Assembly: GCA_963779975.1 (NCBI GenBank)
Contig: CAWAAL010000024.1
Span: forward strand, 57,153-121,152
DNA from: an uncultured Planctomycetia bacterium
GTDB taxonomy: Bacteria > Planctomycetota > Planctomycetia > Pirellulales > Thermoguttaceae
DNA length: 64,000 bases
Direction: 5' to 3'
The position numbers were made by a program, and so were the translations under genes. Shown in pieces: positions 12,575-54,492 of this stretch; within the stretch, counting starts at the first letter, position 1; each line of letters starts with the position of its first letter. The notes below the pieces were generated by a model. The model was not told where the DNA came from. It did no database searches and was given only the letters and a program-made list of their open reading frames with translations.

Positions 12575-12672
12575 GACCTGAACGGCTACTTCTTCTTTAC
12601 GTCGCGGAGAATGAGCGACTCGGCGCGGGTGAAGAGAACGACCTCCTCGCCGGTGACGGTGCTGATGTCGTT
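12575..12672 (-). pseudogene. 3' fragment (~27 codons + 10 nt downstream) of a DUF2294 gene, co-duplicated with element copy 3
   Basis: ctgaacggctacttcttctttacgtcgcggagaatgagcgactcggcgcgggtgaagagaacgacctcctcgccggtgacggtgctgatgtcg matches the 3' end of gene 10837..11241; rc encodes ...DISTVTGEEVVLFTRAESLILRDVKKK*. Confidence 0.6.
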
Positions 12673-12694
12673 TGAAAGAAAGCCAAAAGCTCTA

Positions 12695-17763: not shown

Positions 17764-17954
17764 CGGCCTGCCGGGACCGACTGGCAGTGGTCCATCTCCG
17801 CTTCCTTGCCGGCGCAACCATCTTGGACGGCAGAGCCTTGGCGATAAATGGCGCGGTAACACTCGATGACAACACGATCACCGCGCCAAGTTCGGTTCCA
17901 GAACCCGTATCCCTAAGCCCCATTGCCTTTGCCCTTTGGCGGCGTAAAATGTGA
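17764..17954 (+). pseudogene. C-terminal remnant of a DUF3494 (ice-binding-like) protein with PEP-CTERM-like tail; 5' part missing (abuts the sigma gene stop)
   Basis: 'ATILDGRALAINGAVTLDDNTITAP' vs 'ATILNGRALAQTGAVTMDTNTISNV' in the 18149..20779 protein; tail 'SSVPEPVSLSPIAFALWRRKM*' where the last codons coincide with the -35/spacer/-10 of element copy 4. Confidence 0.5.
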
Positions 17955-22296: not shown

Positions 22297-22443
22297 TTCG
22301 ATCGGACCCGCGCAATTGGAAATTGCAACAAACTGCGACACGTCGGCACAAACAGCATAACCGTCAAACTTTGCCAACTCGCGGGTGCAAGGTCGCCAAC
22401 AAGCAGCCAAAGCAGGGCCCGACAAGGGTTCGGCGCCACGAAA

Positions 22444-22548
22444 GGACCTGAACGGCTACTACTTCTTTACGTCGCGGAGAATGGGCGACTCGGCGCGGGT
22501 GAAGAAGAACGACCTCCTCGCCGGTGACGGTGCTGATGTCATTTGAAA
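22444..22548 (-). pseudogene. 3' fragment of a DUF2294 gene, co-duplicated with element copy 5 (same breakpoint as the 12575 fragment)
   Basis: ctgaacggctactacttctttacgtcgcggagaatgggcgactcggcgcgggtgaagaagaacgacctcctcgccggtgacggtgctgatgtcatttgaaagaaggcc. Confidence 0.55.
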
Positions 22549-22777: not shown

Positions 22778-23791
22778 ATGTCGATCTTACCACACTTTCA
22801 CCAACCCCTGCAGACCGCGACAAAACAGCAGATTTTCCAGCAACATCGCCATGGCGACTCGGCGGAGTCGCTGGCCCGGCGTTTTTGTCGGTCCTGCACC
22901 CGCATTTACGGCATCATCAAGGAGATCCGGGCCGCACGGATCATGGAACTGCCGCTGGACTCCATGGGCAACGAGCAGTTTGCCCGCCTGTGCTCGGAGA
23001 AGAAGGAACGCGAGATATTACAGCCACCGCCGGAAGGCGATCTGGCGGCGAAGAAGTCGCGCGTGCCCGCCGGCATGCCCGCGTATCTGGCCAACCTGTA
23101 CGACGTGCCCCTGCTGACGCACGAGGAGGAGGTCCATCTCTTTCGGAAGATGAACTATCTCAAGTTCAAGGCGAGCGGGCTCCGCGACGCCCTCGACGTG
23201 AACCGGCCCAAGAGTTGCCTGATGGACCAGATCGAGGATCTGTACGACGAATCGGTCGCAGTCCAGAATCAGATCATCCGCGCCAACCTGAGGTTGGTGG
23301 TCGGGATTGCCAAGCGGTACGTCGGTCCGGCGGAAGACTTCTTCGAACTGGTCAGCGACGGGAACATGTCGTTGATCCGCGCCGTGCAGAAGTTCGATGT
23401 TTCGCGGGGCAACAGGTTCAGTACGTACGCAACTTGGGCGATCATGAAGAATTTCGCCCGCACGATCTCCGACGTGCTCCGTCAGCGGGGCCGTTTTTGC
23501 ACGAACCACGCGGAAACGTTCGGCGGCGCCGAGGATGACCGCACGGACCAGTACGAGCAGGCGTCGGCCCAAATCCAGCGGGAATCGCAAGTCGAGGGGA
23601 TCCTCGAGCGACTCGACGAGCGGGAGCGGCAGATTGTCACGAGCCGTTTCGGCCTGGCGCGCGGCCAGGAACCGCTGACCTTGAAGCAGGTCGGGGCTGC
23701 GATCGGCGTAACCAAAGAGCGGGTCCGTCAGATCCAGTGCCGGGCGATGAGCAAATTGAGAACGGCTGCCGAGGAGGACGGAATCGAGTGA
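22778..23791 (+). CDS. sigma-70 family sigma factor (group 3-like)
   Basis: '[39 protein letters not shown]', 'LTLKQVGAAIGVTKERVRQIQCRAMSKLR'. Confidence 0.8.
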   Translation: MSILPHFHQPLQTATKQQIFQQHRHGDSAESLARRFCRSCTRIYGIIKEIRAARIMELPLDSMGNEQFARLCSEKKEREILQPPPEGDLAAKKSRVPAGMPAYLANLYDVPLLTHEEEVHLFRKMNYLKFKASGLRDALDVNRPKSCLMDQIEDLYDESVAVQNQIIRANLRLVVGIAKRYVGPAEDFFELVSDGNMSLIRAVQKFDVSRGNRFSTYATWAIMKNFARTISDVLRQRGRFCTNHAETFGGAEDDRTDQYEQASAQIQRESQVEGILERLDERERQIVTSRFGLARGQEPLTLKQVGAAIGVTKERVRQIQCRAMSKLRTAAEEDGIE

Positions 23792-23811
23792 TTCCAAGGG
23801 AAAGGGACAAC

Positions 23812-26743: not shown

Positions 26744-29150
26744 ATGACGACAAAAGCCCTTTCCCCCGAACTGCTCCAGAAGATGGACGCTTATTGGCGC
26801 GCCGCGAACTATCTCTCGGTCGGCCAGATTTACCTTTATGACAATCCCCTCCTGAAGCGGCCGCTTGCGCTTGCCGACGTGAAGCACATGCTGCTGGGAC
26901 ACTGGGGCACGACCCCCGGACAGAACTTCATCTACGCACACCTGAACCGGGTCATCAAGAAATACGACCTCGACATGATTTATGTCTCCGGTCCGGGGCA
27001 CGGCGGCCCGGCCGTCGTGGCCAACACGTACCTCGAAGGCACGTACAGCGAGGTCTATCCCGACATCAGCCAGGACGAGGCCGGGCTGCGGAAGCTCTTT
27101 CTGCAGTTCTCGTTTCCCGGAGGAATTCCCAGCCACGCATCGCCCGAGTGCCCGGGCTCGATCCACGAGGGCGGCGAGTTGGGCTATTCGCTCAGCCATT
27201 CGTTCGGAGCGGTGTTCGACAATCCCGGTCTCATCGTCGCCTGCGTCGTCGGCGACGGCGAGGCGGAGACGGGACCGCTGGCCACGGCGTGGCATTCGAA
27301 CAAGTTCCTCGATCCGGCCACCGATGGCGCGGTGCTGCCGATCTTGCATCTCAACGGCTACAAGATTTCCAACCCGACCATCCTGGCCCGCATCGAGCAC
27401 GAGGAATTGGAGCAGTTGCTCCGCGGCTACGGGTGGACGCCCTACTTCGTCGAGGGGCACGAGCCCGAACTGATGCACGAGGCGATGGCCGCGACGCTCG
27501 ACGCGGCGGTGGAGCAGATCCGACAAGTCCAGGACAACGCCCGCCGACCATCGGTAGATGGCGCCCCCTACAGCCTGACGCGTCCGCGCTGGCCGATGAT
27601 CGTGCTGAACTCGCCCAAGGGCTGGACGGGGCCGAAGATGATCGATGGATTGCAAGTGGAAGGCACCTTCCGGGCGCACCAGGTGCCGCTCTCCGATCCG
27701 GCGACGCATCCGGAACACCTCAAGCTGCTGGAAGACTGGCTGAGGAGCTACCGGCCGGAGGAACTCTTCGACGATTCAGGCCGCCTGAAAGCGGAGTTGG
27801 CCGAACTGGCGCCCCAAGGCCAGCGGCGCATGGGCGCCAATCCCCACGCCAACGGCGGCCTGCTGCTCCGCGACCTGCGGATGCCGGACTTCCGCGACTA
27901 CGCGGAAGCCGTACCCTCGCCGGGCGCGCGCGGCATCGGCGAACGTCCACGTGCTCGGGCCTTTCCTCCGCGACGTGGCGAAGCTCAACGCCGAGCCGAC
28001 CATGGGTACACGGTGCCCGAACTTTCGCGTCTTCGGCCCTGACGAGACGCTCTCCAACGGCCTGGAGGCCCTTTTCGAAGTGACGCAGCGCCAATGGGAC
28101 GCCGCAACCGTGCCCAACGACGAATTCCTCGCGCCCGCGGGGCGGGTGATGGAAATGCTCAGCGAACATCAATGCGAGGGCTGGCTCGAAGGCTACCTGC
28201 TCACCGGGCGGCATGGACTCTTCAACTGCTACGAGGCCTTCATCCACATCGTCGATTCGATGTTCAACCAGCACGCCAAGTGGCTGAAGGTCACGTCGCG
28301 CTTGCCGTGGCGGCGGAAGATCGCCTCGCTGAACTACCTGCTGGCCTCGCACGTCTGGCGCCAGGACCACAACGGTTTCACGCACCAGGACCCCGGTTTC
28401 ATCGATCACGTCCTGAACAAGAAGGCCGAAATCGTCCGCGTTTACCTCCCCCCGGACGCCAACTGCCTGCTCTCCGTGATCGACCACTGCCTCCGCAGCC
28501 GGCATTACGTGAACGTCGTGGTCGCGGGCAAACACCCCGCGCCGCAGTGGCTGACGATGGACGCCGCCGTCAAGCACTGCACCGAGGGCATCGGCATCTG
28601 GCCGTGGGCGAGCAACGACCAGGGCGTCGCCCCCGACGTGGTCATGGCCTGCTGCGGCGACGTGCCCACGCTGGAGACGCTCGCCGCCGTCTCGATCCTC
28701 CGCGAGCATCTGCCGGAGTTGAAGATCCGGGTGCTCAACGTCGTCGACCTCATGCGGCTGCAACCGCAAAGCGAACACCCGCACGGGCTGAGCGACATGG
28801 ATTTCGACGAGCTTTTCACCAAGGACAAGCCGGTCATCTTCGCGTTCCATGCCTACCCATGGCTGGTCCACCGGCTGACCTACCGCCGCACCAACCACCG
28901 CAACATCCACGTCCGCGGCTACAAGGAAGAGGGCACCATCACCACGCCCTTCGACATGACGGTGCTGAACGATCTGGACCGCTTCCATCTTGTGATGGAC
29001 GTCATCGACCGCCTGCCGCAGACCGGCGACAAGGGCATCTATCTCAAGCAGCAACTCAAGGACAAGCTCATCGAGCACAAGCAATACATCGAGAAGTACG
29101 GCCAGGACCTGCCGGAAATCCGCAACTGGAAGTGGGACAACCTCAAATGA
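26744..29150 (+). CDS. xfp: xylulose-5-phosphate/fructose-6-phosphate phosphoketolase (802 aa); apparent frameshift ~27935-27950
   Basis: '[20 protein letters not shown]', 'GPGHGGPA', '[20 protein letters not shown]'; C-terminal half continues in ORF 27951..29150 ('FLRDVAKLN...[13 protein letters not shown]'). Confidence 0.85.
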
Positions 29151-30237: not shown

Positions 30238-30239
30238 GT

Positions 30240-30360
30240 CAGCCCCGCTATTTCTTCTTCGCGTCGCGGAGCATCGGCGACTCGGCCAGGGTGAAAAGAA
30301 CGACCTCCTCGCCAGTGAGGGTGCTTATGTCATGGCGCATGCTCAACGCAATCCAGGCAA
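30240..30360 (-). pseudogene. 3' fragment of a DUF2294 gene with its own ATG (mini-ORF MMIAWIALSMRHDISTLTGEEVVLFTLAESPMLRDAKKK*), co-duplicated with element copy 6
   Basis: ctatttcttcttcgcgtcgcggagcatcggcgactcggccagggtgaaaagaacgacctcctcgccagtgagggtgcttatgtcatggcgcatgctcaacgc. Confidence 0.5.
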
Positions 30361-33512: not shown

Positions 33513-34619
33513 ACGGCTTTCAATTGCAGCGGCTCGGGCTGATGATGGAGCCGGAACCGGGCAATCCGCATGGAGGCTGAAGGCGTCCTGAATCCGGCGG
33601 CCGTTCGCGGCCCTGACGGCAAGCTTTACCTGTTTCCACGGCTCGTCGCGCGAGGCAATTATTCGCGCATCGGCATTGCCCGCGTAAAATTCAACGAAGC
33701 CGGCGATCCGTGTGGAGTCCAACGGCTCGGCATCGCACTGGAGCCGGAAACCGATTATGAGCGTCGGCCCGACGGCAGCGGTGGCTGCGAGGATCCGCGT
33801 GTCACGTTCGTCGAACCGCTTCAGTGCTACATGATGACTTACGCGGCGCTCTCGCCCATCGGCCCACGGATTGCCGTGGCCGTATCGGAGGATCTGTTTC
33901 ACTGGAAGCGACTGGGGCTCGCGACCTTTGCTCCGTATGACGGCATCGATTTCGTTCACGTGGACAACAAGGATGCCAGCCTCTTCCCCGTCGCCATCCC
34001 CAATCACGCCGGGAAAATGCAGATGGCCATGCTCCATCGTCCCCTTTTCCCCGGCACTCGTCCCGAGGAAACCGCCTGCCAGGCCGCGTCGCGCGAGGTG
34101 GATCTCGATCATGAGAGCATCTGGATTTCCTACTGTCCGATGGCCTTGGAGGGTCCCGAACCGTCACACCTCGGCCTGTTTAATTCGCATCACCGGCTGG
34201 CGACTCCGGTGTCGCCCTGGGAGCGGCTCAAGATCGGTGCGGGCACTCCGCCCGTCATGACCCGGCACGGCTGGCTGATCCTTTACCACGGCGTGAGCGA
34301 AATGGCGGAGGCAAGTAACGACGGACATCATTTGTGCTACTCGGCCGGGGTGATGGTGCTCTCGAAGGAACATCCGCGCGTGATCCGCTATCGTTCGGCG
34401 GAGCCTGTGTTGACGCCGGAATTGCCTCAAGAGCGCTGCGGGACCATTGCCAACGTCGTGTTCCCCACCGGCATCGACCGCCGCGACGACATCGGCTTGC
34501 CGGACCGCTTCGACGTTTACTACGGGATGGCCGACAACCGGATTGGCGCGGCACGCCTGGATGTGCCGGATTTCCTGCCGCCGGGACGAGTCGTCGATCC
34601 GCCGGAAGCAAAGGTGTAG
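33509..34619 (+). CDS. GH130-family glycosylase (beta-mannoside phosphorylase/hydrolase-like); apparent frameshift ~33565; start overlaps upstream stop (ATGA)
   Basis: 'LQRLGLMMEPEPGNP' then 'EAEGVLNPAAVRGPDGKLYLFPRLV', 'GTPPVMTRHGWLILYHGV', 'YSAGVMVLS', 'VVFPTG'. Confidence 0.65.
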
Positions 34620-34654
34620 CGTGCCCGATTTCGGGAAAGAACAGGAGGATAGTC

Positions 34655-37153
34655 ATGTTGAAACCAAATGCAGATAAGCCGGGATCGAAGGACGATCTAA
34701 AATCCCTGCCGCTGGCGGAGGTGGAGAAACGATTGGGCTCGTCGCCGGACGGCCTCAGTCAAGCCGAGGCGCAGAAACGGCTGACCCAATATGGGCCTAA
34801 CGAGATTGAAGAAAAGAAGACCAATCCGCTCCTGAAATTCCTCGCCTATTTTTGGGGTCCCATCCCGTGGATGATCGAAGTGGCGGTGATTCTGTCGGGT
34901 GCGGTCCAGCACTGGCCGGATTTCTTCATCATCCTCCTCTTGCTGGTGACCAACGCCGTGGTCGGATTCTGGGAAGAACACCAGGCGGGCAACGCCATCG
35001 CCGCCCTGAAGGCCAAGCTGGCGATCAAGGCGAGGGTGAAACGTGATGGGAAGTGGGTCAACCCGGCGGCGCGTGAGTTGGTGCCGGGCGACGTCATCCG
35101 CATGCGCCTGGGCGACATCGTGCCGGCCGATGCACGGCTGTTGGACGGCGACCCGGTGGAGGTGGATCAATCCGCGCTGACGGGAGAGTCGTTGCCCGCC
35201 GAGCGCAAACCGGGCGAGGCGGTGTTTTCCGGTTCGATCATTCGTCAGGGTGAAATCGGCGCACTGGTCTACGCCACGGGGGCAAACACCTACTTCGGCA
35301 AGACGGCGCAACTGGTGCAGGAGGCACACACCGTCAGCCATTTTCAAAAGGCGGTCTTGAAGATCGGCGATTACCTGATCATCCTCGCGGCGGCTCTGGT
35401 GGCAGTGATCGTCGTGGTTGCGCTGTTCCGCGGCGATCCGATGCTTTACGCAGAGCCCGGCCGGGAGCCCGTACTGTTGTTTGCGCTGGTCCTCACGGTG
35501 GCCGCGATTCCCGTGGCAATGCCCACGGTGTTGTCGGTGACGATGGCGGTCGGCGCCCGCCTGCTCGCCAGGAAAAAGGCGATCGTGAGCAAGCTGGTGG
35601 CCATCGAGGAACTGGCGGGCGTGGACGTGCTGTGCGCGGACAAGACCGGCACCCTGACCCAGAACAAGCTGACGCTGGGCGATCCGTTCAGCGTACACAA
35701 CGTCGCCGCCGATCAAGTGATCCTGGATGGCGCGCTGGCGTCGCGTGCGGATAATAACGACACCATCGATCTGGCCGTCCTGGGCGGACTGAAAGACAAG
35801 GATTCGTTAAAGGCTTATGAGGTGCTTCATTTCCAGCCGTTCGACCCGGTGCATAAACGCACCGAGGCCACCGTCAAAGCCAAAGACGGAAAGACGTTCA
35901 AGGTGACGAAGGGTGCGCCGCAGGTGATTTTGGCGTTGTCGGCCAATGCCGGGCAGGTGAAGCCCGCCGTCGAGAAAGCCGTCAATGAATTTGCGGCGCG
36001 CGGCTTCCGTTCGTTGGGCGTGGCGCGGGCCGAGGGCGACGGGCCATGGCAGTTTGTCGGCGTGTTGCCCTTGTTCGATCCCCCGCGGGAAGATGCCAAG
36101 GCAACCATCGCGACCGCGCTGGCCATGGGCGTAAAGGTCAAGATGGTTACGGGGGACGCGCTGGCCATCGCCAAGGAAACCGCCAAGAAGCTGGACATGG
36201 GCACGAATATCCTCGATGCCGGCGGCCTGGGCGACACGAAGCATCACGAGACGGCGCAGTCGGCGGAGGCAATTGAAAAAGCGGACGGCTTCGCCCAGGT
36301 GTTCCCCGAACACAAGTTCCACATCGTGGACGTCCTGCAGCAACGCGGCCACATCGTCGGCATGACGGGCGACGGGGTGAACGATGCCCCCGCGCTGAAG
36401 AAGGCCGACTGCGGCATCGCCGTTTCCGACGCGACGGACGCGGCCCGCGCGGCGGCGGCCATCGTGCTGCTGACGCCGGGCCTATCGGTGATTATCGACG
36501 CCATCAAGGAGAGCCGGAAGATCTTCCAGCGGATGAACAGCTACGCGATCTACCGCATCGCCGAGACGCTGCGCGTGCTGTTCTTCATGACGCTGGCGAT
36601 CCTGGTGTTCAACTTCTATCCGTTGACGGCGGTGATGATCGTGATGCTGGCGTTGCTCAACGACGGGGCGATCCTCTCCATTGCCTATGACAACGTTCAT
36701 TACAAGGACAAGCCCGAGGCCTGGAACATGCACATGGTGCTGGGGGTCGCCACGGTGCTGGGCCTGATCGGGGTCGTCTCCGCGTTCCTTCTGTTTTATC
36801 TTGGCGAGCGTGTCTTCGGCCTCGACCGCGCGCACATCCAGACGCTGATGTACTTGAAGCTCTCCGTGGCGGGACATCTGACGATCTTCCTGACGCGGAC
36901 GCGCGGCCCGTTCTGGTCGATCCGCCCCGCGCGAATTCTATGGGTGGCCGTGCTCGGCACGCAAATCGTGGCGACGTTGATCGCCGTTTATGGACTGTTC
37001 ATGACGCCCCTTGGCTGGGGTTGGGCGATGTTTGTTTGGGGTTATGCCCTGGCTTGGTTCCTCGTGAATGACCGCCTGAAATTGCTCGCGTATCGGATTT
37101 TCGATCCAACTACCTTGCCCCTATTGGCCAAGAAACACTGCCATGCCGGATGA
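34655..37153 (+). CDS. P3A-type plasma-membrane H+-ATPase (P-type ATPase)
   Basis: 'CADKTGTLTQNKL', 'TGDGVNDAPALKKADCGIAV', 'KMVTGDALAIAKETA'; RBS aggagg. Confidence 0.9.
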   Translation: MLKPNADKPGSKDDLKSLPLAEVEKRLGSSPDGLSQAEAQKRLTQYGPNEIEEKKTNPLLKFLAYFWGPIPWMIEVAVILSGAVQHWPDFFIILLLLVTNAVVGFWEEHQAGNAIAALKAKLAIKARVKRDGKWVNPAARELVPGDVIRMRLGDIVPADARLLDGDPVEVDQSALTGESLPAERKPGEAVFSGSIIRQGEIGALVYATGANTYFGKTAQLVQEAHTVSHFQKAVLKIGDYLIILAAALVAVIVVVALFRGDPMLYAEPGREPVLLFALVLTVAAIPVAMPTVLSVTMAVGARLLARKKAIVSKLVAIEELAGVDVLCADKTGTLTQNKLTLGDPFSVHNVAADQVILDGALASRADNNDTIDLAVLGGLKDKDSLKAYEVLHFQPFDPVHKRTEATVKAKDGKTFKVTKGAPQVILALSANAGQVKPAVEKAVNEFAARGFRSLGVARAEGDGPWQFVGVLPLFDPPREDAKATIATALAMGVKVKMVTGDALAIAKETAKKLDMGTNILDAGGLGDTKHHETAQSAEAIEKADGFAQVFPEHKFHIVDVLQQRGHIVGMTGDGVNDAPALKKADCGIAVSDATDAARAAAAIVLLTPGLSVIIDAIKESRKIFQRMNSYAIYRIAETLRVLFFMTLAILVFNFYPLTAVMIVMLALLNDGAILSIAYDNVHYKDKPEAWNMHMVLGVATVLGLIGVVSAFLLFYLGERVFGLDRAHIQTLMYLKLSVAGHLTIFLTRTRGPFWSIRPARILWVAVLGTQIVATLIAVYGLFMTPLGWGWAMFVWGYALAWFLVNDRLKLLAYRIFDPTTLPLLAKKHCHAG

Positions 37154-37930
37154 AGTCACGTTTGATCATGAAGCAGGCGTCTTGCGGGTCTTGCAGACCA
37201 AGAGCGAGACGAAGGCATTCTACGACAAGATCGCCATGGTCTATGATCTCTTGGCGGAGCATTCCGAGCGGCCCGTGCGTGAAACCGGGCTGCGGCTGCT
37301 CGCTGCTGCCCCAGGTGAGCGCGTTCTGGAAATCGGCTTCGGGACCGGCCATATCTTGGCCGAACTTGCCCGTGCCGTCGGGCCGACGGGAAAGGTCTTC
37401 GGCATCGACATCTCGGAGAACATGTTGGACCACGCAAGAGGCGTTCTGAGCAACAAGGGCCTCATTGACCGCGTTTCCCTTGATTGCGGCGATGCCCAAA
37501 GCCTCCCCTACGGTGACGACTCGCTGGACGGGATATTCATGTGCTTCACCCTGGAACTGTTCGACACGCCGGACATTCCCAAGGTGCTGGCAGAGTGCAA
37601 GCGGGTCCTGCGGCCGCGCGGGCGCATCGTCGTCGTGGCCATTTCCAAGGAGTGTAAAGACGGCAAAGAAGGCAAGGACGGGTTCATCATTCACGCCTTC
37701 GAGTGGACACATCGCCACTTTCCCAATTTGATGGACTGCCGGCCGATCTATGTCCGCCGAGCGCTGGAGGCGGCGGGCTTTGCCATCGAGGACTCGCGGA
37801 CGGAATCTATGTGGATTCCCGTGGAGATTGTGCTGGGCAGGAGGGCCGTCTTCTTGCCTTTGCCCCGAAGCTGGACTCCATGGGCGACGAGCAAATTGCG
37901 AACGGCTGCCGAGGAGGACGGAATCGAGTG
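37143..37930 (+). CDS. class I SAM-dependent methyltransferase (UbiE/COQ5-like); native C-terminus replaced by a read-through into a duplicated sigma-factor 3' fragment
   Basis: 'RVLEIGFGTGHILAELARAVGPTGKVFGIDISENML', 'LRPRGRIVVV'; ORF continues '...TSKLRTAAEEDGIEC' = copy of the end of gene 22778..23791. Confidence 0.65.
37880..37927 (+). repeat. ~48-bp duplicate of the 3' end of the sigma gene at 23744-23791
   Basis: ggcgacgagcaaattgcgaacggctgccgaggaggacggaatcgagtg vs gcgatgagcaaattgagaacggctgccgaggaggacggaatcgagtg. Confidence 0.75.
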
Positions 37931-37979
37931 CTTTCCAGCGGTGGAGGCGAAGGACCACGAGTCGAGCAGCGAGGCCAGA

Positions 37980-38307
37980 ACATGCCCCCACAGCCCCATG
38001 CCCATAAACATTTCACCGGCACGGCAACCGTCCGCGACATCGTGATCGGCATGTCCGATGGTTTGACCGTTCCCTTCGCCCTCGCAGCTGGGCTTTCGGG
38101 GGCCGTGGACGCGACGAGCATCGTGATTACGGCCGGGCCGGCCGAGGTTGCGGCTGGTTCGATTGCGATGGGCCTGGGCGGCTACTTGGCCGCAAGGACC
38201 GATTCCGAACATTACGTCACGGAGCGGGCTACCGAAAAAGAGGCAACGATCGAGATGCCGGAACCGGAGGCCGAAGAAGTGGCCTCAGTATTCCGGCACT
38301 TATCTTA
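37980..38307 (+). pseudogene. N-terminal fragment of a VIT1/CCC1-family Fe/Mn transporter, truncated immediately before element copy 7
   Basis: 'VRDIVIGMSDGLTVPFALAAGLSGAVDATSIVITAGPAEVAAGSIAMGLGGYLAA...'; ends after ~109 aa, lacking the C-terminal TM bundle. Confidence 0.5.
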
Positions 38308-38336
38308 GCGAAGATGCTTGGCTAAAACCACGAGTA

Positions 38337-38522
38337 TTGCCTTTTCCCTTCGGCGGCGTACAATTTCAGTGTTGGAAGAGTTGCGGGGCACTTGTTCGCG
38401 GCTCTCCAGTGAAATTGTCGGATGACTAGATAGAGGGCAACCTGGCTGTGCCGGGGGGCTAGTTGAAGAGTAAGCCGACGTGGTCGAACACCTTAGGGTA
38501 TTCCGCCACGTCGGCTTTTTTG
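38337..38522 (+). ncRNA. multi-copy promoter-RNA element, copy 7 (complete; 3' extension box aacggtcggaatccagcacggaag shared with copy 2)
   Basis: -35 TTGCCT 38337-42, -10 TACAAT 38359-64; hairpin gttggaagagttgcggggcacttgttcgcggctctccag; core with cctggctgtgccgggg; TTTTTT 38515-21. Confidence 0.7.
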
Positions 38523-38605
38523 TTTTCTGTGACGCCAAACGGTCGGAATCCAGCACGGAAGACTTCCAGGTTCAAAATCCTGGAGTTGAGCGGAGGTGAC
38601 GAACC

Positions 38606-39052
38606 ATGAGTCGAGATGCAATTGACAGAATGGAAATCCTCATGGTCGAGGATAACTTGCAGAATGCCAACGGCACGATACAGGCCCTCAAATGGGGCAA
38701 CGTGCAATGCCGAGTGAGCCTGGTCTGCGATGACGAGGAAGCGATCCGCTTTCTCTACCGTAAGGGTGAATTCGCCAAGGCGCCGACGCCCAACCTGATC
38801 CTGCTGGACATGCAGTTGCCCAAGGAGGAAGGTCAGCGCTTGCTTGCGGAAATCCGCGCCAACGAAGAACTCAAGGACATTCCCGTTGTGGTCCTCACCG
38901 GTTCACTGGATCACCGAGCGGGTCTTCACGTCCAAGAGATTCAGGTGGACGGCTTGATCACGCACCCCGTGGAGTTGGACAAGTTCATCGGTGTGGTCAA
39001 GTCGCGTCGCCGGTCTTGGTTGACCGACCTTGCGCTGTCCTCCATTGCCTGA
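38606..39052 (+). CDS. single-domain response regulator (REC only)
   Basis: 'ILMVEDNLQNANGTIQALKW...LILLDMQLPKEEGQRLLAEIRANEELKDIPVVVLTGS'; RBS ggaggtga. Confidence 0.75.
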   Translation: MSRDAIDRMEILMVEDNLQNANGTIQALKWGNVQCRVSLVCDDEEAIRFLYRKGEFAKAPTPNLILLDMQLPKEEGQRLLAEIRANEELKDIPVVVLTGSLDHRAGLHVQEIQVDGLITHPVELDKFIGVVKSRRRSWLTDLALSSIA

Positions 39053-39432
39053 CGGACACGACCTGGAACACAACCGTTACGAAGACAATCATCCTTTTTT
39101 GCAGCACCGTTCTGGCCGTCGGCGAATTCGGCATGGGTTTCACAATCGGGGTGTTGAGAACCCTGGCTTTTGTCGTCATCGTGTTCGGCAATCAGGCGAC
39201 GACCTATGCCAACCGCGAATGCCGGCGACTCCGGTCCTCTCACCCCAGCTTCTGGCTGGCAATGTCATCGGTTGCCGATATCCTGATCGCCTCGATGTTG
39301 GCCATCGGGGGAATCTCCATGACTCTTTTGCCGGCTCTTGTCGTGGCCGGCACGCTTGCCGCGGCGGTGGTCTTCGCCTTGGTCGTGGATGCGGCCAAAG
39401 TGCCGGTATTCGGGCGACTCGGGATCGCGTGA
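39016..39432 (+). pseudogene. C-terminal fragment of a second P-type ATPase (last TM helices)
   Basis: 'VFGNQATTYANRECRRLRSSHPSFWLAMSSVADILIASMLAIGG' parallels 'IFLTRTRGPFWSIRPARILWVAVLGTQIVATLIAVYG' of the 34655 gene. Confidence 0.35.
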
Positions 39433-39456
39433 TCACTAATCCGCATCCTGGACGGC

Positions 39457-39717
39457 GTGGGGGCGGGAGTATTCGGCGTTGTCTCGGTCCTCGTGATCGC
39501 CGACCTCACGCGGGGCTCGGGCCGCTTTAATCTCACGCTCGGGGCCATCAGCACGGCGGTCGGCATTGGTGCTTCGCTCAGCCAGGTCATTGCCGGCTCC
39601 ATCGTGCATCACTTTGGCTCCAACGTCGGCTTTCTCTTCCTTGCCGCGGTCGCGTCGGCCGCATTGGGCATCCTTTACTTCTTCATGCCGGAGACACACA
39701 ATAAAGGGTTTGCCTGA
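39457..39717 (+). pseudogene. C-terminal fragment of an MFS transporter
   Basis: 'RFNLTLGAISTAVGIGASLSQVIAGSIVHHFGSNVGFLFLAAVASAALGILYFFMPETHNK'. Confidence 0.4.
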
Positions 39718-39740
39718 CCAACCCCACGAGCATCAACCCT

Positions 39741-40091
39741 ATGAACACCGTCCTTCTGCTGGTTCTGTCGAATGTCTTCATGACTTTCGCCTGGTACGGG
39801 CACTTGAAATACGGTCACGAGTGGCCGCTATGGAAAGCGATCCTGGTCTCCTGGGCGATCGCGCTCTTGGAATACTGCCTGGCGGTGCCGGCAAACCGCC
39901 TCGGTTACGGCCAGTTCTCCGGATTCCAGCTCAAGATCATTCAAGAGGTCGTCACGCTCCTCGTCTTCATCGTATTCGCGATCGCGTTTCTGAAGGAGAA
40001 AGTTGCGTGGAATTATCTCGTGGCCTTTGTGTTTCTCGGCGTTGCCGCGTTCTTCGCCTTTGCGTTCAAGGCGCCCGGACCGGCCGCCTGA
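39741..40091 (+). CDS. DMT-superfamily small membrane protein (DUF486-like)
   Basis: 'VLLLVLSNVFMTFAWYGHLKY', 4 TM segments. Confidence 0.5.
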   Translation: MNTVLLLVLSNVFMTFAWYGHLKYGHEWPLWKAILVSWAIALLEYCLAVPANRLGYGQFSGFQLKIIQEVVTLLVFIVFAIAFLKEKVAWNYLVAFVFLGVAAFFAFAFKAPGPAA

Positions 40092-40257
40092 ACGACTGGA
40101 TGGGAAGGCATGAACCTGGCGCGGAGCAATCCCCATTTTCTCTTTACGTCGCGGAGAATTGGCGACTCGACCGGGAGACCTCCTCGCGGCTGACGGCGCC
40201 GAACACCACGGCCCATGCCTCAACAGCTTGATACTGTGGGAAAAAGCAATGGGCCTA

Positions 40258-40444
40258 TTGCCTTTGTACCCTCATGACGTACAATGATGGTGTTGGAAGA
40301 GTCGTGGCGCGATTGATCTCGACTCTCCAGCGAACGTGTCGGATGACTAGATGAAGAGCAGCCCGGCTGTGCCGCGGGGGCTCGTTAGTGAGTAAGCCGA
40401 CGTGGTCGAATACCTTGGGGCATTCCGCCACGTCGGCTTTTTTC
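40258..40444 (+). ncRNA. multi-copy promoter-RNA element, copy 8 (complete; preceded by a degraded DUF2294 tail at ~40130-40200)
   Basis: -35 TTGCCT 40258-63, -10 TACAAT 40280-85; hairpin ggaagagtcgtggcgcgattgatctcgactctcc; TTTTTT 40438-43. Confidence 0.7.
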
Positions 40445-40453
40445 GTTTTCCTA

Positions 40454-40525
40454 AGAACGTTCGGAAGAAATTGGTGCCAGTCACACGTTTGTCCCGGGCT
40501 TCCGCTCATTTCTTCCGAACGTTCT
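40454..40525 (+). promoter_or_regulatory. 5'-UTR hairpin: 18-bp perfect inverted repeat with 36-nt loop, 20 nt upstream of RBS/ATG 40545; paralogous copy at 48350-48421
   Basis: agaacgttcggaagaaat ...36 nt... atttcttccgaacgttct. Confidence 0.6.
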
Positions 40526-40544
40526 AACATGAAAGGCTGAACCC

Positions 40545-41531
40545 ATGCGTAGTGTTTTGATCATGACAGGCGTGGCTCTCGCGCTGGTCGCGATGGCGGT
40601 TGCCCAAGGACCACTGAAGAGCGTATCGGGCGACTTGCCCGACAAGCCCGCCGCGTCCGATACGGCAACGACGGCAACCGCCGCGTTTGTGGCCAGCCTG
40701 GCGCAGCCGCAAGACGAGAAGTCGATCCGGCTCGCCGCCGAGGCGTTTGCCAAGGCGTATAATGCGGGCAATGCCCAGACGATCGCGCAACTGTTCATAC
40801 CCAGCGGGGAGATAGTCAGCGAAGAAGGCCAATCTACTCAGGGCCGCGAAGCGATCGAGCAAGAGTTCGCAGGAATCTTCAAGGAACATCCCAAGACCCA
40901 CATGGTTCTGGCCATCGGCTCCATTCGGTTCATCGGTCCGGACATGGCCGTCGAGGACGGGACGGCGACCGTGACCCATGGGCCCGACGAGCCCGCCCAG
41001 CGCAGTCCCTACTCGGTGACCTACGCCAGGCAGGACGGCAGGTGGCTGACGGCCAGCTCGCGAGACCTTCCCGATGACACGCCCACGCCCGAGGAGCAGC
41101 TCAAGCAACTCCAGTGGATGATCGGCGAATGGGTGGACGAAAGCCCGGAAGCCCTGATCATGACCTCCTACCGCTGGACCGACAATCAATGCTACATCTT
41201 GAGCGAATTCAAGGTCCAGGTCGGCGGCCGGCCGGTGATGACCGGTACCCAGCGCATCGGCTGGGACCCCTTGGCAAAGAAGATCCGTTCCTGGGTCTTC
41301 GACTCGGAAGGCGGGTTTGGCGAAGGTCTCTGGACGCGGGAAGGCAACCAATGGATCGTGAAAAGGACCGGCGTGACGCGTGACGGAAAGACCGCCTCGG
41401 CGACCAACATCATCGCCCGAGTATCCAAGGACCGAATGACGTGGCAACAACGGGACCGCATCGTCGGCGGGGAGAAGACGCCCGACATCGCGGAAACCCC
41501 GATCACGCGTAATCCGCCCGCCCCCAAATAA
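40545..41531 (+). CDS. secreted protein with two SnoaL-like/DUF4440 (NTF2-fold) domains
   Basis: signal peptide 'MRSVLIMTGVALALVAMAVAQG'; 'AFAKAYNAGNAQTIAQLFIPSGEIV...GREAIEQEF' and a second NTF2-like half. Confidence 0.5.
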   Translation: MRSVLIMTGVALALVAMAVAQGPLKSVSGDLPDKPAASDTATTATAAFVASLAQPQDEKSIRLAAEAFAKAYNAGNAQTIAQLFIPSGEIVSEEGQSTQGREAIEQEFAGIFKEHPKTHMVLAIGSIRFIGPDMAVEDGTATVTHGPDEPAQRSPYSVTYARQDGRWLTASSRDLPDDTPTPEEQLKQLQWMIGEWVDESPEALIMTSYRWTDNQCYILSEFKVQVGGRPVMTGTQRIGWDPLAKKIRSWVFDSEGGFGEGLWTREGNQWIVKRTGVTRDGKTASATNIIARVSKDRMTWQQRDRIVGGEKTPDIAETPITRNPPAPK

Positions 41532-43339: not shown

Positions 43340-43918
43340 ATGAAATCGAGCCGATCTTCTCGTGTCACGCAACTCCTGGAGAAACCCGGACCGGGGGACC
43401 GCCCTGCCGCAGAGCAGTTGTTTGCGGACGTCTACGGCGAACTGCGATCGCTTGCCGCGCGATACCTGCACCGGGAACGAAAGAGCCATACGCTTCAGCC
43501 GACCGCGCTGGTTCACGAAGCCTACTTGAAGCTCGTCGGTCAAACGCGCGTGGATTGGCAGGGCCGGGCCCATTTCCTGGCCATTGCCGCTCACGCCATG
43601 CGAGAGATCCTCGTCGATCATGCTCGGCGGCATAAGGCAAAAAAGCGGGGTGGCAATCGGCATCGCATCGCGCTGGACGACAACCTGGCCGTCGAGTCCA
43701 ATCGCGACGTGGACCTGTTGGCGCTGGAAGACGCCTTGGCCAAGCTCGCAAAGCTCGACCCGCGCCAGGCCCAAATGATCGAACTCCGATTCTTTGGCGG
43801 CCTGGACATCGCGGAAGTCGCGAAGGTGATGGGGATGTCCAAACGATCGGTGGAGCGGGAATGGACCATGGTTCGCGCCTGGTTGCGGCGGGAACTCGGC
43901 AGGAGCGGCACGCCATGA
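43340..43918 (+). CDS. ECF sigma factor (Ser/Thr-kinase-associated type)
   Basis: 'LFADVYGELRSLAARYLHRERKSHTLQPTALVHEAYLKLV', 'AQMIELRFFGGLDIAEVAKVMGMSKRSVEREW'; stop overlaps the kinase ATG. Confidence 0.8.
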   Translation: MKSSRSSRVTQLLEKPGPGDRPAAEQLFADVYGELRSLAARYLHRERKSHTLQPTALVHEAYLKLVGQTRVDWQGRAHFLAIAAHAMREILVDHARRHKAKKRGGNRHRIALDDNLAVESNRDVDLLALEDALAKLAKLDPRQAQMIELRFFGGLDIAEVAKVMGMSKRSVEREWTMVRAWLRRELGRSGTP

Positions 43919-45002
43919 ATGCGGAGCGCTATGCGCAGGTCCGAAGACTGTTCCTGGCCGCGTGCGAGCTTGCCGAAAGTGAGATGGGCGCGTTTCTCGA
44001 TCACGCCTGCGCGGGCGATCCCGAGCTTCGCGAGGAACTGGAATCCCTGCTGAAGCAACCTCGCGCGACGACCATCATCGGCACGTCAAGCGAAGACGCC
44101 GCCCGCGGCAAGGTCCTTTCCCCCCTCGCCCATCTTCCGCAGTGAACTTGTTCCCGCCGATATCCCCCTTGAGGCGGCACGGGCTGGGAATCCGTGGCGT
44201 TTTTCGCCGGGTGAAATCATTGCCGCCCAGCGCTACAAGATTCTGGGGCCGCTGGGCGGAGGCGGCGCCGGCGAGGTCTACAAGGCGCACGATCAGATCA
44301 TGGATCAAGACGTGGCGTTGAAGTTTCTCGCCCCCGGGCAGAGCGGCGGCGACCCGACGTGCAGCCGTTTCGTGAGCGAAGTCGCGATGGCCCGTGAAGT
44401 TGCCCATCCGAACGTGGTCAGGGTCTACGACGTCGGCCAACTTGCCGACGGCGAGGTGTTTCTGTCGATGGAGTTCATCGACGGCGAAGACCTTGCGTCG
44501 TTGCTCCGCCGCGCCGGCAGGCTCTCGCCTGAAAAGACCGTGCAAATCGCCCGGGAACTGTGCGCCGGGCTGGGCGGCCGCGCACGATCATGGCGTGTTG
44601 CACCGGGACCTGAAGCCGTCCAATATCTTGATCGACGGAGACGGTCACGTGCATATCGCCGATTTCGGCATTGCGGCTTTCGTTCCCACTGCCGCAGGCG
44701 AGATTCCTTTGGCCGGGACACCCGCTTTCATGGCCCCCGGGTTGTTTCACCACAAGCAACCCTCGAAACAAAGCGACCTCTATGCGCTGGGGATCGTGCT
44801 GTATGAAGTGGCCACGGGAAGGGAGCCCTTCGGCGGCGTGCCGGCCGACGGCCTCCAAGCCGCTGCCGAACTGGTTCCGCCTTCGGTGCTGTGTCCCGAA
44901 ATCGGGCCTGCCCTGGAACGGGCCATCCTGCGGTGCTTGGAAGAAGATCCGGGCCGGCGGCCCGAATCCGCGGAAGCTGTTGCGGCCCTTCTGCCGCGAT
45001 AG
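43915..45002 (+). CDS. Ser/Thr protein kinase with the N-terminal ECF-partner domain; 2 apparent frameshifts (~44120 c6-run; ~44580 +g)
   Basis: 'MNAERYAQVRRLFLAACEL...PELREELESLLKQ'; 'YKILGPLGGGGAGEVYKA', 'VALKFL', then 'HDHGVLHRDLKPSNILIDGDGHVHIADFGIA', 'SDLYALGIVLYEVATGREPF'. Confidence 0.7.
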
Positions 45003-45007
45003 GTTCC

Positions 45008-46570
45008 CTAGTTGTCCACGTCCTTCCGGAGGGGCAATTGGACCACGATCCGGGTTCCCTTGCCCAAGCTGCTCGTGATGGTCGCGGATCCCCCAAACAA
45101 CTTTGCGCGTTTCTGAATTCCTTCCAAGCCAAAGTGGCCGTCGCCGACTTCACGGGGATTGAAGCCGATGCCCCAGTCTTGGACCTCAATCAGAACGTGC
45201 CGGTTCCGCCGGGTCAACCTGACGAGCACGCGCTCGCTCTGGCTGTAGCGGCGGGCGTTGGCAAGGCCCTCTTGCAGGATCCGATAAATGGTATTTTCCG
45301 ACGCGGGCTCCCACCGCTCGCCGTCGAGGTTATGGACGAACTCGATCTCTGGTTTGCCCGGAGCGCTGCCTTGGGAGATAAGGTCCTCGATGGCAGCCAC
45401 CACGCCGCATTCGTCCATGAGCGGTGAACGCAGTCCACGGATCAACCGGCGTGCTTCCCGCATACAGTCGTCAAGCGCTCTTAGTCCAGTCTCGAAACTC
45501 GTCCAGACCTCGCCGTCTCCCTCTCCTTTGAACCGGCTGAACGCCGCAAAGTGCGTGATCGCGGCGGCGAGTTGCTGGACGAATCCGTCGTGGATTTCGC
45601 AGGAAACCACTTGTCGATCCCGGTCCTGCAATTCCAGCAAGTGGCGGAGATACTGCTGCTCCTTGAGCGACTGTTCCTCTGTCTGCCGACGCTCCTTGAT
45701 CTCCGGCCTCGACGGTTCGGCGGCTTGATCGCGGCCAAGCCCGGCGGCGTGCCCAGGGACGGGATCGGTATCCAGGCCCAGGAACTGCGGACCTTGCGAC
45801 GCCCACTCGGTCGGGTCCAAGGGCCCCGTGACCCTAGTAAGACCGAGATCCAGCGTGCGGAGTTGTCTCAACCCCTTGAGGTGCTCCATGCCGGCGTCGC
45901 TGACCTCGGTGCCGCGGAGGCCCAGCGACTGGAGTTGCCTCAATCCCTTGACGTGTTCCAGGCCGGCGTCCGTGACCTTGGTGCCGCCGAGGTCGAGTTC
46001 TCGAAGTCGGGGCAGACCCCTGAGGTGCTTCAGATCGGCGCCGGTAGCCCAGAAGCACAATTCTTCGAGTTCGGGCAGACCGCGGAGGTGCTGCAAACCG
46101 GCATCGGTGACTTCGGTGCCGCCGAGCCCCAGTTCTTGGAGTTGCCGCAACGCCTGGAGGCGCTTCAGACCGGCGTCGGTGACCTTGGCGCCGCTGAGGT
46201 CCAGCGTCTGGAGTTGGGGCAGATCCTCAAGGTGCTCCAGGCCGGCGTCGCTGACCTCGGCGCCGCCGAGGTCCAGCGTCTGGAGTTGGAACAGACCCTT
46301 GAGGTGTTCCAGACCGGCGTCGCTGACCTTGGTGCCGCCGAGGTCCAGCGTTTGGAGTTGCGTCAGCCCCTTCAGGTGTTCCAAACCGGCGTCGCCGACT
46401 TCCGTGTGGGAGAGATACAACTCTCGGAGCAGGGGCAAGTCCTTGAGGCACTCCAAGGCGTCGTCGTCGAGCAGGCACCAGGAGAGGTCAACGGATATCG
46501 CAACGTCGCCTCGCAACAACTGGATCTTGGCAATCGCCTCTGCGCAATCCGGGTAATCTGGCTTCATCAT
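45008..46570 (-). CDS. cytoplasmic leucine-rich-repeat (9 x 24-aa LRR) - HisKA_3 - HATPase_c sensor histidine kinase
   Basis: repeats 'LxxLxxLDLGGTKVSDAGLEHLKG'; 'VVSCEIHDGFVQQLAAAITHFAAF' (HisKA_3 H-box); 'LQEGLANARRYSQSERVLVRL...DWGIGFNP...GLEGIQKRAKLFGG'. Confidence 0.75.
   Translation of the reverse strand: MMKPDYPDCAEAIAKIQLLRGDVAISVDLSWCLLDDDALECLKDLPLLRELYLSHTEVGDAGLEHLKGLTQLQTLDLGGTKVSDAGLEHLKGLFQLQTLDLGGAEVSDAGLEHLEDLPQLQTLDLSGAKVTDAGLKRLQALRQLQELGLGGTEVTDAGLQHLRGLPELEELCFWATGADLKHLRGLPRLRELDLGGTKVTDAGLEHVKGLRQLQSLGLRGTEVSDAGMEHLKGLRQLRTLDLGLTRVTGPLDPTEWASQGPQFLGLDTDPVPGHAAGLGRDQAAEPSRPEIKERRQTEEQSLKEQQYLRHLLELQDRDRQVVSCEIHDGFVQQLAAAITHFAAFSRFKGEGDGEVWTSFETGLRALDDCMREARRLIRGLRSPLMDECGVVAAIEDLISQGSAPGKPEIEFVHNLDGERWEPASENTIYRILQEGLANARRYSQSERVLVRLTRRNRHVLIEVQDWGIGFNPREVGDGHFGLEGIQKRAKLFGGSATITSSLGKGTRIVVQLPLRKDVDN
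45850..46420. repeat. ~72-bp near-perfect tandem DNA repeats encoding the LRR units
   Basis: recurring ...ccggcgtcgctgacctcggtgccgcggaggcccagcgactggagttgc... blocks. Confidence 0.7.
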
Positions 46571-53497: not shown

Positions 53498-54492
53498 TTA
53501 CGACAGTTGCAGGCCCAACTCGAGCCGGCCGGCATTTTCCAGGGCTTTCGCCGCCGCGCATAAATCCTGAATTGCCACGCCGACGGACTTGAACAAGGTG
53601 ATCTCGTCCGCATGTCCTCGGCCCGGCGACCGACCCAGCACAACGTCGCCCAACTCCGTGGCGAAGTGCGACTCCTCGATCAAGCCTTGCCGCAATGGTT
53701 GGAGCAAATCACCTGCTTCTTCCAGCGCTGCTGCGAGGTGATCCACCACGACGTGCGCTCGGCAGACCGTGGCGGGAGGGATCTCGCTCACGTGCGGCTG
53801 GTAGGAACCGATCGCGTTGACGTGGACGCCATGCTTGAGATCGGAGTCTTCGAAGATGGGCTCCGACGAAGTGGTAGCCGTGCAAACGACGTCGGCGTCT
53901 TTCAGAGCTTCAACCGGGCTGGCCGCGCGTTCGACGGGCCGGCCGAGGCGCCGGGTCATTTCGGCCGCAAACCGATCCGCGGCAGACGGGGCCGCGTCAT
54001 AGATGTATGCCCGGTGGATCGTGCGCACGCAACAAACTGCTTCCAGTTGAGTGCGTGCCTGCGCGCGGCGCCAAACACAGCTACCACCGCGGCATCGGGT
54101 CGGGCCAGGAGATCCGTGGCCAGACCGGACGCGGCACCGGTGCGGATGGCGGTGAGGCTCGTACCGTCCATCACCGCCAGATGCGCACCGGTCGTGCCGT
54201 CGGTCAGGATCACCAGTGACTGAATCGTCGGCAGCCCGCACCGCGGGTTATCAGGAAATATCGTGATGGTCTTCAATGAGAACATCCGCAACGCGATGGA
54301 ATGGCAGGGCATGACAAGCGCCACGCCACGCTCGTCCGGCGTTTGCAGACTTGCGCGGGCAGGCAACGTCACCTGCCCGTCGGCTAACTGGGCGAACGCC
54401 TCGCGCATCGCCGCAATCGCGTCGGTCATCGGCAGCGCGCGGCATACGTCGGCAGCGGAAAGATAGAGCCATGGAGCGGTTCTCATCGTCAT
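53498..54492 (-). CDS. ornithine cyclodeaminase / mu-crystallin family protein; apparent frameshift ~54000-54060
   Basis: N-terminal part in ORF 53956..54723 ('MTMRTAPWLYLSAADV...'), C-terminal part in ORF 53498..54241 ('HVNAIGSYQPHVSEIP...EITLFKSVGVAIQDLCAA'). Confidence 0.65.

Follow-up and report, generated by a model that had tools for sequence, protein, structure and literature searches.

In a 64-kb stretch of DNA from an uncultured Planctomycetia bacterium of the Thermoguttaceae (contig CAWAAL010000024.1; ~61% G+C; hereafter the window), we analyzed a region of ~2.6 kb (37143-39717) around one copy, at 38336, of a repeated promoter-leader cassette. The region contains a methyltransferase gene with an extended tail, two pieces of a sigma-factor gene, the 5' piece of a VIT-family gene, the cassette with its response-regulator gene, and the 3' pieces of a second P-type ATPase gene (ATPase2) and of an MFS transporter gene. 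All four kinds of fragment lie at or near the coordinates first reported, with matches far above chance level. Every gene piece was matched to a full-length counterpart, either within the window or in a relative. We consider it likely, with a probability of about 0.65, that the region consists of what deletions and gene-block swaps left behind around the repeated promoter-leader, as part of ordinary genome wear, and that the fragments are young and non-functional. Rearrangement scars with pseudogene fragments are a feature of an already known kind.

The closest relatives of the window are metagenome-assembled Pirellulales/Thermoguttaceae from soil and peat, whose contigs or loci are referred to here as L001, L002 and so on; database proteins are designated P0002, P0136 and so on, and the truncated VIT protein of the window is itself already in the databases as P0136. 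About 70 open reading frames (ORFs) of the window were scanned with Pfam, and a tRNA search was made over the 64 kb. Literature searches on DUF2294 in Planctomycetes, and on gene fragments, pseudogenes, recombination and repeats in Planctomycetes, returned nothing relevant.

Gene order in relatives

The initial annotation of this DNA had named comparative genomics of strains among its checks. Comparison with relatives supplied both the full-length counterparts and a putative ancestral gene order. In L121, the methyltransferase stop codon lies 5 bases before the start of ATPase2, whose product shares 85-91% protein identity with ATPase2 of L001, and in L001 ATPase2 is followed by DMT_6. The MFS gene overlaps a following DMT_6 gene by 4 bases in 38 of 80 metagenome loci. 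Taken together, these arrangements indicate that methyltransferase, ATPase2, MFS and DMT_6 originally stood in this order. On the basis of the wider comparison with relatives, the fuller order would have been ATPase1, a HEAT-repeat or PPK2 gene, methyltransferase, ATPase2, MFS and DMT_6.

In the window, the initial ~2.1 kb of ATPase2 are replaced by a 1.25-kb mosaic (37845-39092), and a second gap begins directly behind the ATPase2 stop codon, with ~1 kb of MFS sequence missing. At least 8 breakpoints separate these 2.6 kb from relatives that are ~90% identical. Over a larger span, a 20-kb comparison with L001 (~90% identity) splits into about a dozen blocks. By our reading of the blast table, roughly 6 of the ~16 block ends fall at cassettes, which make up ~3% of the sequence. 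Blocks of shared order end at or inside cassettes at the response-regulator unit, at the YflT unit (from 30437) and the DMT_6 cassette (both against L001), and at the unit headed by the cassette at 47385 (against L121). The neighborhood of the cassettes is thus prone to rearrangement.

A methyltransferase gene reads through remnants of a cassette and a sigma gene

The first gene of the region (37143-37844, + strand) encodes a class I S-adenosylmethionine (SAM)-dependent methyltransferase of the UbiE/COQ5-like type with a complete core of ~233 codons. Its Pfam matches (Methyltransf_25, Methyltransf_11 and Ubie_methyltran) span residues 27-217, and it has a full Rossmann-type domain collinear with full-length homologues. 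The ORF runs on to 38045, for a total of 300 residues. Among the best 120 homologues listed, most have 225-253 residues and cover just the first 78% of the ORF; they are collinear with it to about residue 233 at 80-90% identity, and nucleotide similarity to L001 stops at 37840. Beyond this point, alignment and translation identify a read-through tail of ~65 non-native codons (37845-38045, +), which runs across a cassette remnant, the sigma pieces and the start of the VIT gene. The ORF, with which the sigma copy is in frame, reads ...ATSKLRTAAEEDGIE... Replacement was limited to ~3 native residues at the end and to the stop codon, and the earlier statement that a sigma copy replaces the native C-terminus of the methyltransferase was too strong in this respect, although the in-frame copy is present.

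The beginning of the tail could be traced with the help of L035, a 1.7-kb metagenome contig in which the same methyltransferase 3' end leads directly into an intact cassette (...CTCTTGCCTTTGTCCCAAAGCGGCGTACAATG...; ...GGCAGGAAGGCCGTCCTCTTGCCTTTGTCCCAAAGCGGCGTACAATG...). The window follows L035 across the -35 box and the spacer as far as ...GAAGC at 37871, where it switches to sigma sequence. What is left at 37852-37871 (+; a member of repeat family D9) is the -35 box TTGCCT at 37854-37859 with its spacer, the -10 box, leader and terminator having been deleted. The L035 protein P0002 carries a related tail, AVLLPLSQSGVQ*, which is encoded by the intact cassette promoter and ends at a stop inside the -10 region. 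The first residues of the window's tail (AVFLPLPRS) are therefore translated cassette promoter, from the -35 region. In the homologue alignment, the tail had no homologue except P0002.

Next in the tail are two pieces of the sigma gene at 22778-23791, which carries regions 2 and 4 by Pfam. Remnant A (37870-37899, +; family D19), which the initial annotation had overlooked, corresponds to about codons 59-68 of this gene, with 27 of 30 bases identical to 22954-22983. Remnant B (37882-37938, +; family D17) comprises the last 16 codons, the former stop (TGA to TGC) and ~8 bases of 3' flank, with 52 of 57 bases identical to 23742-23798; it bears out the earlier report of a ~48-bp copy of the sigma 3' end at 37880-37927 in the methyltransferase reading frame. 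An exact 31-mer (37900-37930) equals 23760-23790, compared with 0 such matches in 100 shuffles. The two remnants overlap across a short imperfect repeat, GGGCnAnGAGCAnnTTG, and, since this repeat is present at both sites in the sigma gene, the arrangement fits an internal deletion of ~790 bp. Together they amount to ~8% of the sigma gene and, at ~10 and 16 codons that are mutually out of frame, do not make a sigma-70 factor at 37870-37938, which would need regions 2 and 4 within a single ORF.

These remnants suggest that the unit at the methyltransferase 3' end was a cassette with its sigma gene; L035 confirms only the cassette part. We also considered L121, where sigma and methyltransferase homologues share one contig, as a candidate for a row of methyltransferase, cassette and sigma, and rejected it upon finding the methyltransferase followed by ATPase2 instead.

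A VIT gene is cut just upstream of an intact cassette

The VIT1/CCC1-family fragment (37982-38308, +) starts at its true ATG at 37982 and retains codons 1-105 of ~232, after which 3 foreign codons lead to a stop (38306-38308). It matches Pfam VIT1 over positions 1-90 of 214 (E = 7.7e-27) and shares 82-87% protein identity with the VIT genes of L037 and L038 up to 38296, where similarity to full-length VIT ends at codon 105. Its stop lies 29 bases upstream of the cassette -35 box (38337), in agreement with the initial annotation, which described a VIT N-terminal fragment stopping at the cassette promoter. The fragment falls short of a VIT1/CCC1 transporter, which would have five helices in ~230 residues and cover the whole profile. 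Full-length copies of 232 codons are present in L120 and L038. A tblastn search of the window found the remainder of VIT in no frame and at no other place, and no other pieces of VIT, MFS or ATPase2 occur anywhere in the window.

Many database VIT proteins end or diverge at codons 103-106, from which we suspected a recurrent breakpoint. We rejected this, as the genes in L120 and L038 are of full length but frameshifted, probably owing to indel errors in long reads. Truly truncated VIT genes were found only in the window, L037 and L119, and the three junctions are unrelated. In L037, an independently truncated VIT is followed by a cassette and then by a different gene (DUF3309); from its break up to the core of the cassette, no similarity to the window was found.

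Gene remnants seem common in this genome group. In L119 (2488-3060), VIT is cut near codon 115 and is followed by a C-terminal piece that, by eye from its translation, resembles a pyridine-nucleotide disulfide oxidoreductase, and then by a rhodanese gene, with no cassette.

The response-regulator unit ends inside ATPase2

The intact cassette downstream of VIT (38336-38527, +) was delimited by nhmmer (193 bits over the full model), a promoter scan and alignments. Its promoter, TTGCCT-N16-TACAAT, lies at 38337-38364 and is followed by a variable stem and a conserved core from 38417; a terminator-like hairpin comes last, and its T run extends to about 38527. Behind it is an intact gene for a stand-alone response-regulator receiver of 148 residues (38606-39052, +; Pfam Response_reg; dN/dS, the ratio of nonsynonymous to synonymous substitution rates, 0.30-0.33). 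Orthologues of the same length, 74-77% identical, occur in L002, L003 and L004, each behind a cassette core and in unrelated surroundings. Similarity to L002 and L003 runs from 38415, in the cassette core, to ~39088, 36 bases past the stop codon, and similarity to ATPase2 begins at ~39093; the 3' flank and junction (39053-39092, +) were placed by blastn block ends and the junction sequences.

Downstream of this junction are the C-terminal pieces of a second P-type ATPase and of an MFS transporter that had been reported to follow the response regulator, and both were confirmed. The ATPase2 remnant (39093-39432, +) retains the last ~113 of ~815 codons with the native stop, as judged from nucleotide similarity to L001 and L121: the 3' end of a ~818-codon ATPase gene in L001 (18519-18858) shares 87.6% identity with 39097-39436, and 39097-39434 is 83% identical to 12749-13087 of L121. 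By tblastn it corresponds to residues 150-262 of the C-terminal ORF in L001. It has no Pfam match and does not constitute a P-type ATPase, which would have actuator, DKTGT-bearing phosphorylation and nucleotide-binding domains together with the membrane helices.

The MFS remnant (39433-39717, +) retains the last ~95 of ~440 codons, equivalent to residues 341-440 of a 441-residue orthologue, and is 74-92% identical in protein to the MFS C-termini of the 80 metagenome loci, most of which have an open MFS frame of 410-560 codons. Its match to Pfam MFS_1 is weak (25.8 bits, below the cut-off of 33.4), and it is far from the twelve helices and ~400-450 residues of an MFS transporter. In L041, a cassette lies upstream of the MFS gene. 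In the window, the MFS remnant starts directly after the ATPase2 stop (39430-39435) and in the same frame, with one TGA between the two; read-through of this codon would give a fusion peptide, but the arrangement is probably a coincidence.

The fragments show mildly relaxed constraint

One alternative to decay is that the short or chimeric genes function, the methyltransferase having gained a C-terminal domain, the VIT fragment encoding a two-helix N-terminal protein, or the ends of ATPase2 and MFS yielding small membrane peptides. All fragments are open to their stop, with no internal stop in any of them and high GC at third codon positions, and their dN/dS (0.11-0.31) is not that of neutral sequence. 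VIT is truncated near codons 105-115 in three separate contigs, and ATPase2 and MFS share a frame, as described above. The dN/dS of the fragments is nevertheless about twice that of intact copies: 0.31 for ATPase2 compared to 0.16-0.21 for intact neighboring genes (0.21 for the methyltransferase), 0.14-0.18 for MFS compared to 0.06 between intact copies, and 0.11-0.13 for VIT compared to 0.05-0.07 between intact copies. Low values are expected if most of the divergence predates a recent truncation, and we interpret the pattern as mildly relaxed constraint, as would be expected if the truncations were recent relative to the split from the relatives.

Other observations likewise argue against function. 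The junctions of the three VIT truncations are unrelated, and other seemingly short database VIT proteins are the frameshifted full-length genes already mentioned. The ATPase2 and MFS remnants have no upstream ATG in homologous sequence (the listed ORFs start with TTG and GTG) and no promoter-like site nearby. The methyltransferase tail consists of a translated promoter and of other sequence read out of context. Functional short genes appear very unlikely, and we regard the fragments as remnants of decay.

Flanking genes and transcription

Upstream of the methyltransferase is an intact gene for P-type cation ATPase 1 (ATPase1; 34334-37153, +), with the domains Cation_ATPase_N, E1-E2_ATPase and Hydrolase by Pfam, and with nucleotide identities of 90% to L001 and 96% to L036. 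L001 (9401-9996) and L036 (9397-9996) have a HEAT-repeat gene of 540 bp that separates ATPase1 from the methyltransferase. Because this gene is missing in the window, at 37136-37139, the last codons of ATPase1 overlap the methyltransferase start, and the C-terminus of ATPase1 now reads ...KKHCHAG*. Identity to L036 is 96.4% before this junction and 88.9% after it, which marks another recombination boundary.

Downstream of the region are an intact gene for a DMT_6 (DUF486) membrane protein (39741-40091, +; full Pfam DMT_6 profile, E = 2.4e-43; 90% nucleotide identity to L001; dN/dS 0.16), which is the conserved partner of the MFS gene, and the next cassette copy (40257-40449, +; nhmmer 184 bits; families D11 and D4). 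A promoter scan of 36900-40600 found only the two cassette promoters and no other promoter-like site between 38364 and 40258. Because only these were found, the ATPase2 and MFS remnants and DMT_6 are probably co-transcribed with the response regulator, and DMT_6 is probably now under the response-regulator cassette promoter.

The cassette is a candidate regulatory RNA

The window contains 11 cassette copies, all on the + strand and confined to 10.2-48.3 kb (10248, 11421, 12694, 17922, 22565, 30396, 38336, 40257, 46670, 47385 and 48145). Cassettes were also found in L001, L002, L003, L004, L035, L037, L038, L041, L046, L120 and L121. A typical cassette measures ~190 nt and consists of the promoter, a variable stem, a highly conserved core of ~115 nt (GTCGGATGACTAGATAGAGAGCAACCC...GGGGGCTCGTTAGnGAGT) and a 20-bp hairpin with a T run. 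Over the core (111 nt in this comparison), copies are 82-90% identical, except for one degenerate copy (10248). In some relatives, the -10 box stands directly before the core and the variable stem is absent. RNAalifold on 20 copies (from the window and five contigs of relatives) gave 33 base pairs, 6 of them with compensatory changes. The genes headed by cassettes form a stress-type set and include those for a sigma factor, the response regulator, YflT, DUF3309, DUF1328, a SnoaL-like protein and the MFS-DMT_6 pair. Rfam gave no match at gathering score over the whole window and only chance-level matches (E ≥ 3) at 38300-38620. The cassette is most likely a functional leader or small RNA rather than a neutral repeat; it looks like an undescribed regulatory RNA and is more novel than the gene remnants around it.

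Copy 10248 is without its terminator half and diverges after GTCGAATAG. Following it is an opposite-strand ORF whose similarity to bacterial transglutaminase-like proteins is confined to their N-terminal region, and this stretch (10248-10819) is possibly another scar.

Several cassettes carry pieces of neighboring genes. An intact MpsC/DUF2294 gene (10837-11241, - strand) lies divergently upstream of a cassette core, as it does in L003, L004 and L038, and 3' tails of MpsC of ~35 codons lie upstream of four other cassettes (12576-12682, 22402-22542, 30238-30344 and 40140-40177). The tails before 12694 and 22565 share a breakpoint, and those before 30396 and 40257 (the latter degenerate) have different ones, so the cassettes were evidently copied together with flanking DNA and not moved as elements with defined ends. 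In the cassette alignments, the copies have no ends in common other than the promoter and the terminator hairpin, and they differ in their flanks. At 17764-17954 is a piece of an Ice_binding paralogue, in which spacer positions 50-117 are 78% identical to 18829-18896; the latter lies inside an Ice_binding-like gene downstream of cassette 17922, and the piece is thus one more gene fragment located just upstream of a cassette.

The DUF2294 tails and the piece at 17764-17954 had contributed to the proposal in the initial annotation that the cassette neighborhood is a recombination hotspot at mobile-element or att-site remnants. These pieces are real and the neighborhood is unusually rearranged, but the mobile-element or att-site part of the proposal found no support. 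It would require that a site-specific recombinase or transposase moved cassette-gene units in the manner of an integron, cutting neighboring genes. As in integron arrays (attC sites with IntI), repeats of one orientation each precede a different gene or small operon and the surroundings vary between genomes, and the response-regulator unit in particular stands in unrelated surroundings in L002 and L003. In L001, moreover, a DDE transposase gene (ISAZ013-like; 20503 onwards) lies ~900 bases after the DMT_6 cassette; it has no counterpart in the window, where a SnoaL/DUF4440 gene occupies this position.

The initial annotation had itself seen no integrase or transposase, and this held: the Pfam scan and the tRNA search found no integrase, transposase, other recombinase or tRNA in the 64 kb, and hence no recombinase beside the array. 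Nor are there repeat-bounded units with a fixed crossover, as left ends vary, with MpsC tails that break at different points or are missing, and on the right the response-regulator unit extends to 36 bases beyond its stop codon, a point without a repeat. The repeat here is also upstream of its gene, with its own promoter and terminator and a structured core with compensatory changes, which resembles a regulatory RNA and not an attC-type site; a look at the core by eye revealed no attC-like core site (R'/R''). Finally, the sigma piece was reduced by internal deletions and not by excision. We thus regard a mobile-element or att-site hotspot as unlikely, and favor deletions and block swaps around a regulatory repeat.

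Assembly quality and the junctions

Since metagenome-assembled genomes can contain chimeric joins of reads or strains, we also considered whether the region is an assembly artefact. The closest relatives are metagenome bins, several of which look long-read from their contig or bin names and frequent frameshifts. The window itself contains a 1-base frameshift in its XFP phosphoketolase gene (26744-29150), which appears as two overlapping ORFs owing to one extra base near 27946 (GAAC here, GAC in L001) and is either a sequencing indel or a recent pseudogene. A Ser/Thr kinase region (43900-45430) extends over at least four overlapping frames, one ORF of which (44300-44806) covers only positions 25-111 of Pfam Pkinase. 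An ornithine cyclodeaminase (OCD) ORF (53498-54241) covers only profile positions 139-309. In addition, just two database proteins, P0136 and P0241, were identical to those of the window, and they share one 175,567-bp contig and provide no independent copy.

Most junctions in the region, however, lie outside repeats that would confuse an assembler, including those of the ATPase2 stop with MFS, of the sigma 5' piece with the 3' piece, and of the response-regulator flank with ATPase2. The flanking adjacencies were each confirmed in independent relatives (methyltransferase-ATPase2 in L121, ATPase2-DMT_6 in L001, MFS-DMT_6 in metagenomes and methyltransferase-cassette in L035). VIT is truncated also in L119 and in L037, the latter apparently a short-read assembly made with MEGAHIT to judge from the name of its contig, and indel errors cannot account for the loss of 2 kb of a gene. 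An artefact therefore appears very unlikely.

A proposed series of deletions and swaps

As the comparison with relatives shows, a cassette-headed unit, which the sigma remnants suggest was a cassette with its sigma gene, came to adjoin the 3' end of the methyltransferase in this lineage. Two internal deletions then cut it down to a -35 box with its spacer and to sigma codons, ten internal and sixteen terminal, and the same two deletions removed the stop that had ended the methyltransferase ORF. The VIT gene that comes next is cut at codon 105, just upstream of a complete unit of cassette and response regulator. The far end of this unit is joined inside ATPase2, of which the last 113 codons are left, and a separate deletion, from the ATPase2 stop into MFS, left the last ~95 MFS codons.

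Cassettes, as direct repeats on one strand, may act as homology anchors for this recombination. A segment would recombine by one end at a resident cassette and be joined illegitimately by the other to a point within downstream DNA where little or no homology exists, and the intervening DNA would be lost; alternatively, an unequal exchange could have preceded a deletion. Later deletions would trim dead DNA up to the next selected promoter, and deletion endpoints would gather at the upstream edge of cassettes because selection keeps the cassette promoter and the downstream gene. Such anchoring could thereby account for fragments that abut cassette promoters, for units whose similarity starts at the core, and for far ends located within genes.

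A number of observations weigh against this account. The anchoring mechanism is one that we infer rather than observe: comparing the 5' and 3' halves of cassette 38336 did not reveal a crossover inside it, with a core too conserved to reveal one, and its 3' half resembles the response-regulator cassettes of L002 and L003 (83%) no more than it does the other copies of its own genome (82-90%, 10248 excepted). Several junctions lie away from cassettes, namely ATPase1-methyltransferase, sigma-VIT, ATPase2-MFS and MFS-DMT_6. No relative with methyltransferase, cassette and intact sigma in a row was recovered, as the L035 contig ends inside the cassette. Microhomology at the junctions is an estimate, and the order of events given here is tentative. 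The split XFP gene, the multi-frame kinase region and the partial OCD gene are signs of indel error or pseudogenes elsewhere in the window, and assembly quality is uncertain, with indel errors likely in long-read metagenome bins such as those of the closest relatives.

Discussion

The remnants resemble the scars and pseudogene remnants of illegitimate deletion at short homologies in several respects. The truncated pieces are highly similar to intact orthologues and were joined within coding sequence, a short imperfect repeat marks the point where the two sigma pieces meet, and selection is mildly relaxed. In contrast to such scars, four remnants and a promoter remnant are packed here into 2.6 kb, which is unusually dense, and they are tied to a repeated regulatory element.

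Homology-facilitated illegitimate recombination, in which homology anchors one side and the far end is joined illegitimately, is known from natural transformation in Acinetobacter and Streptococcus. It is similar to the present case in that a ~190-nt repeat adjoins each incoming unit and that the response-regulator unit was joined at its far end to the interior of a resident gene, at a cost of ~2 kb of resident DNA, but differs in that no crossover is visible inside the cassette here. REP/BIME and ERIC elements are dispersed intergenic repeats that are associated with rearrangement. Like these, the cassettes are short, conserved, hairpin-bearing intergenic repeats that coincide with breaks in gene order between relatives. 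The cassette is, however, much longer and strictly on one strand, has a sigma-70-like promoter and a structured core, and heads stress-related genes.

For annotation, these results mean that the 300-residue methyltransferase is an extended gene, and that the 85-108-residue VIT protein and the ORFs at the ATPase2 and MFS ends are pseudogene fragments and not new proteins. More broadly, the stretch provides a worked example of the decay and rewiring of a bacterial gene cluster, in which the remnants can be traced and the ancestral order can be reconstructed from metagenome relatives.

The ~190-nt cassette is both a candidate undescribed regulatory RNA and a site where rearrangements concentrate, a link that can be tested on the many genome bins available. 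A speculative and unlikely extension is that the cassette also serves as a portable recombination anchor, with which this group of soil planctomycetes would shuffle, capture and discard stress genes without a dedicated recombinase, as an integron without an integrase. If this were true, graveyards of gene fragments such as this one would be routine by-products.

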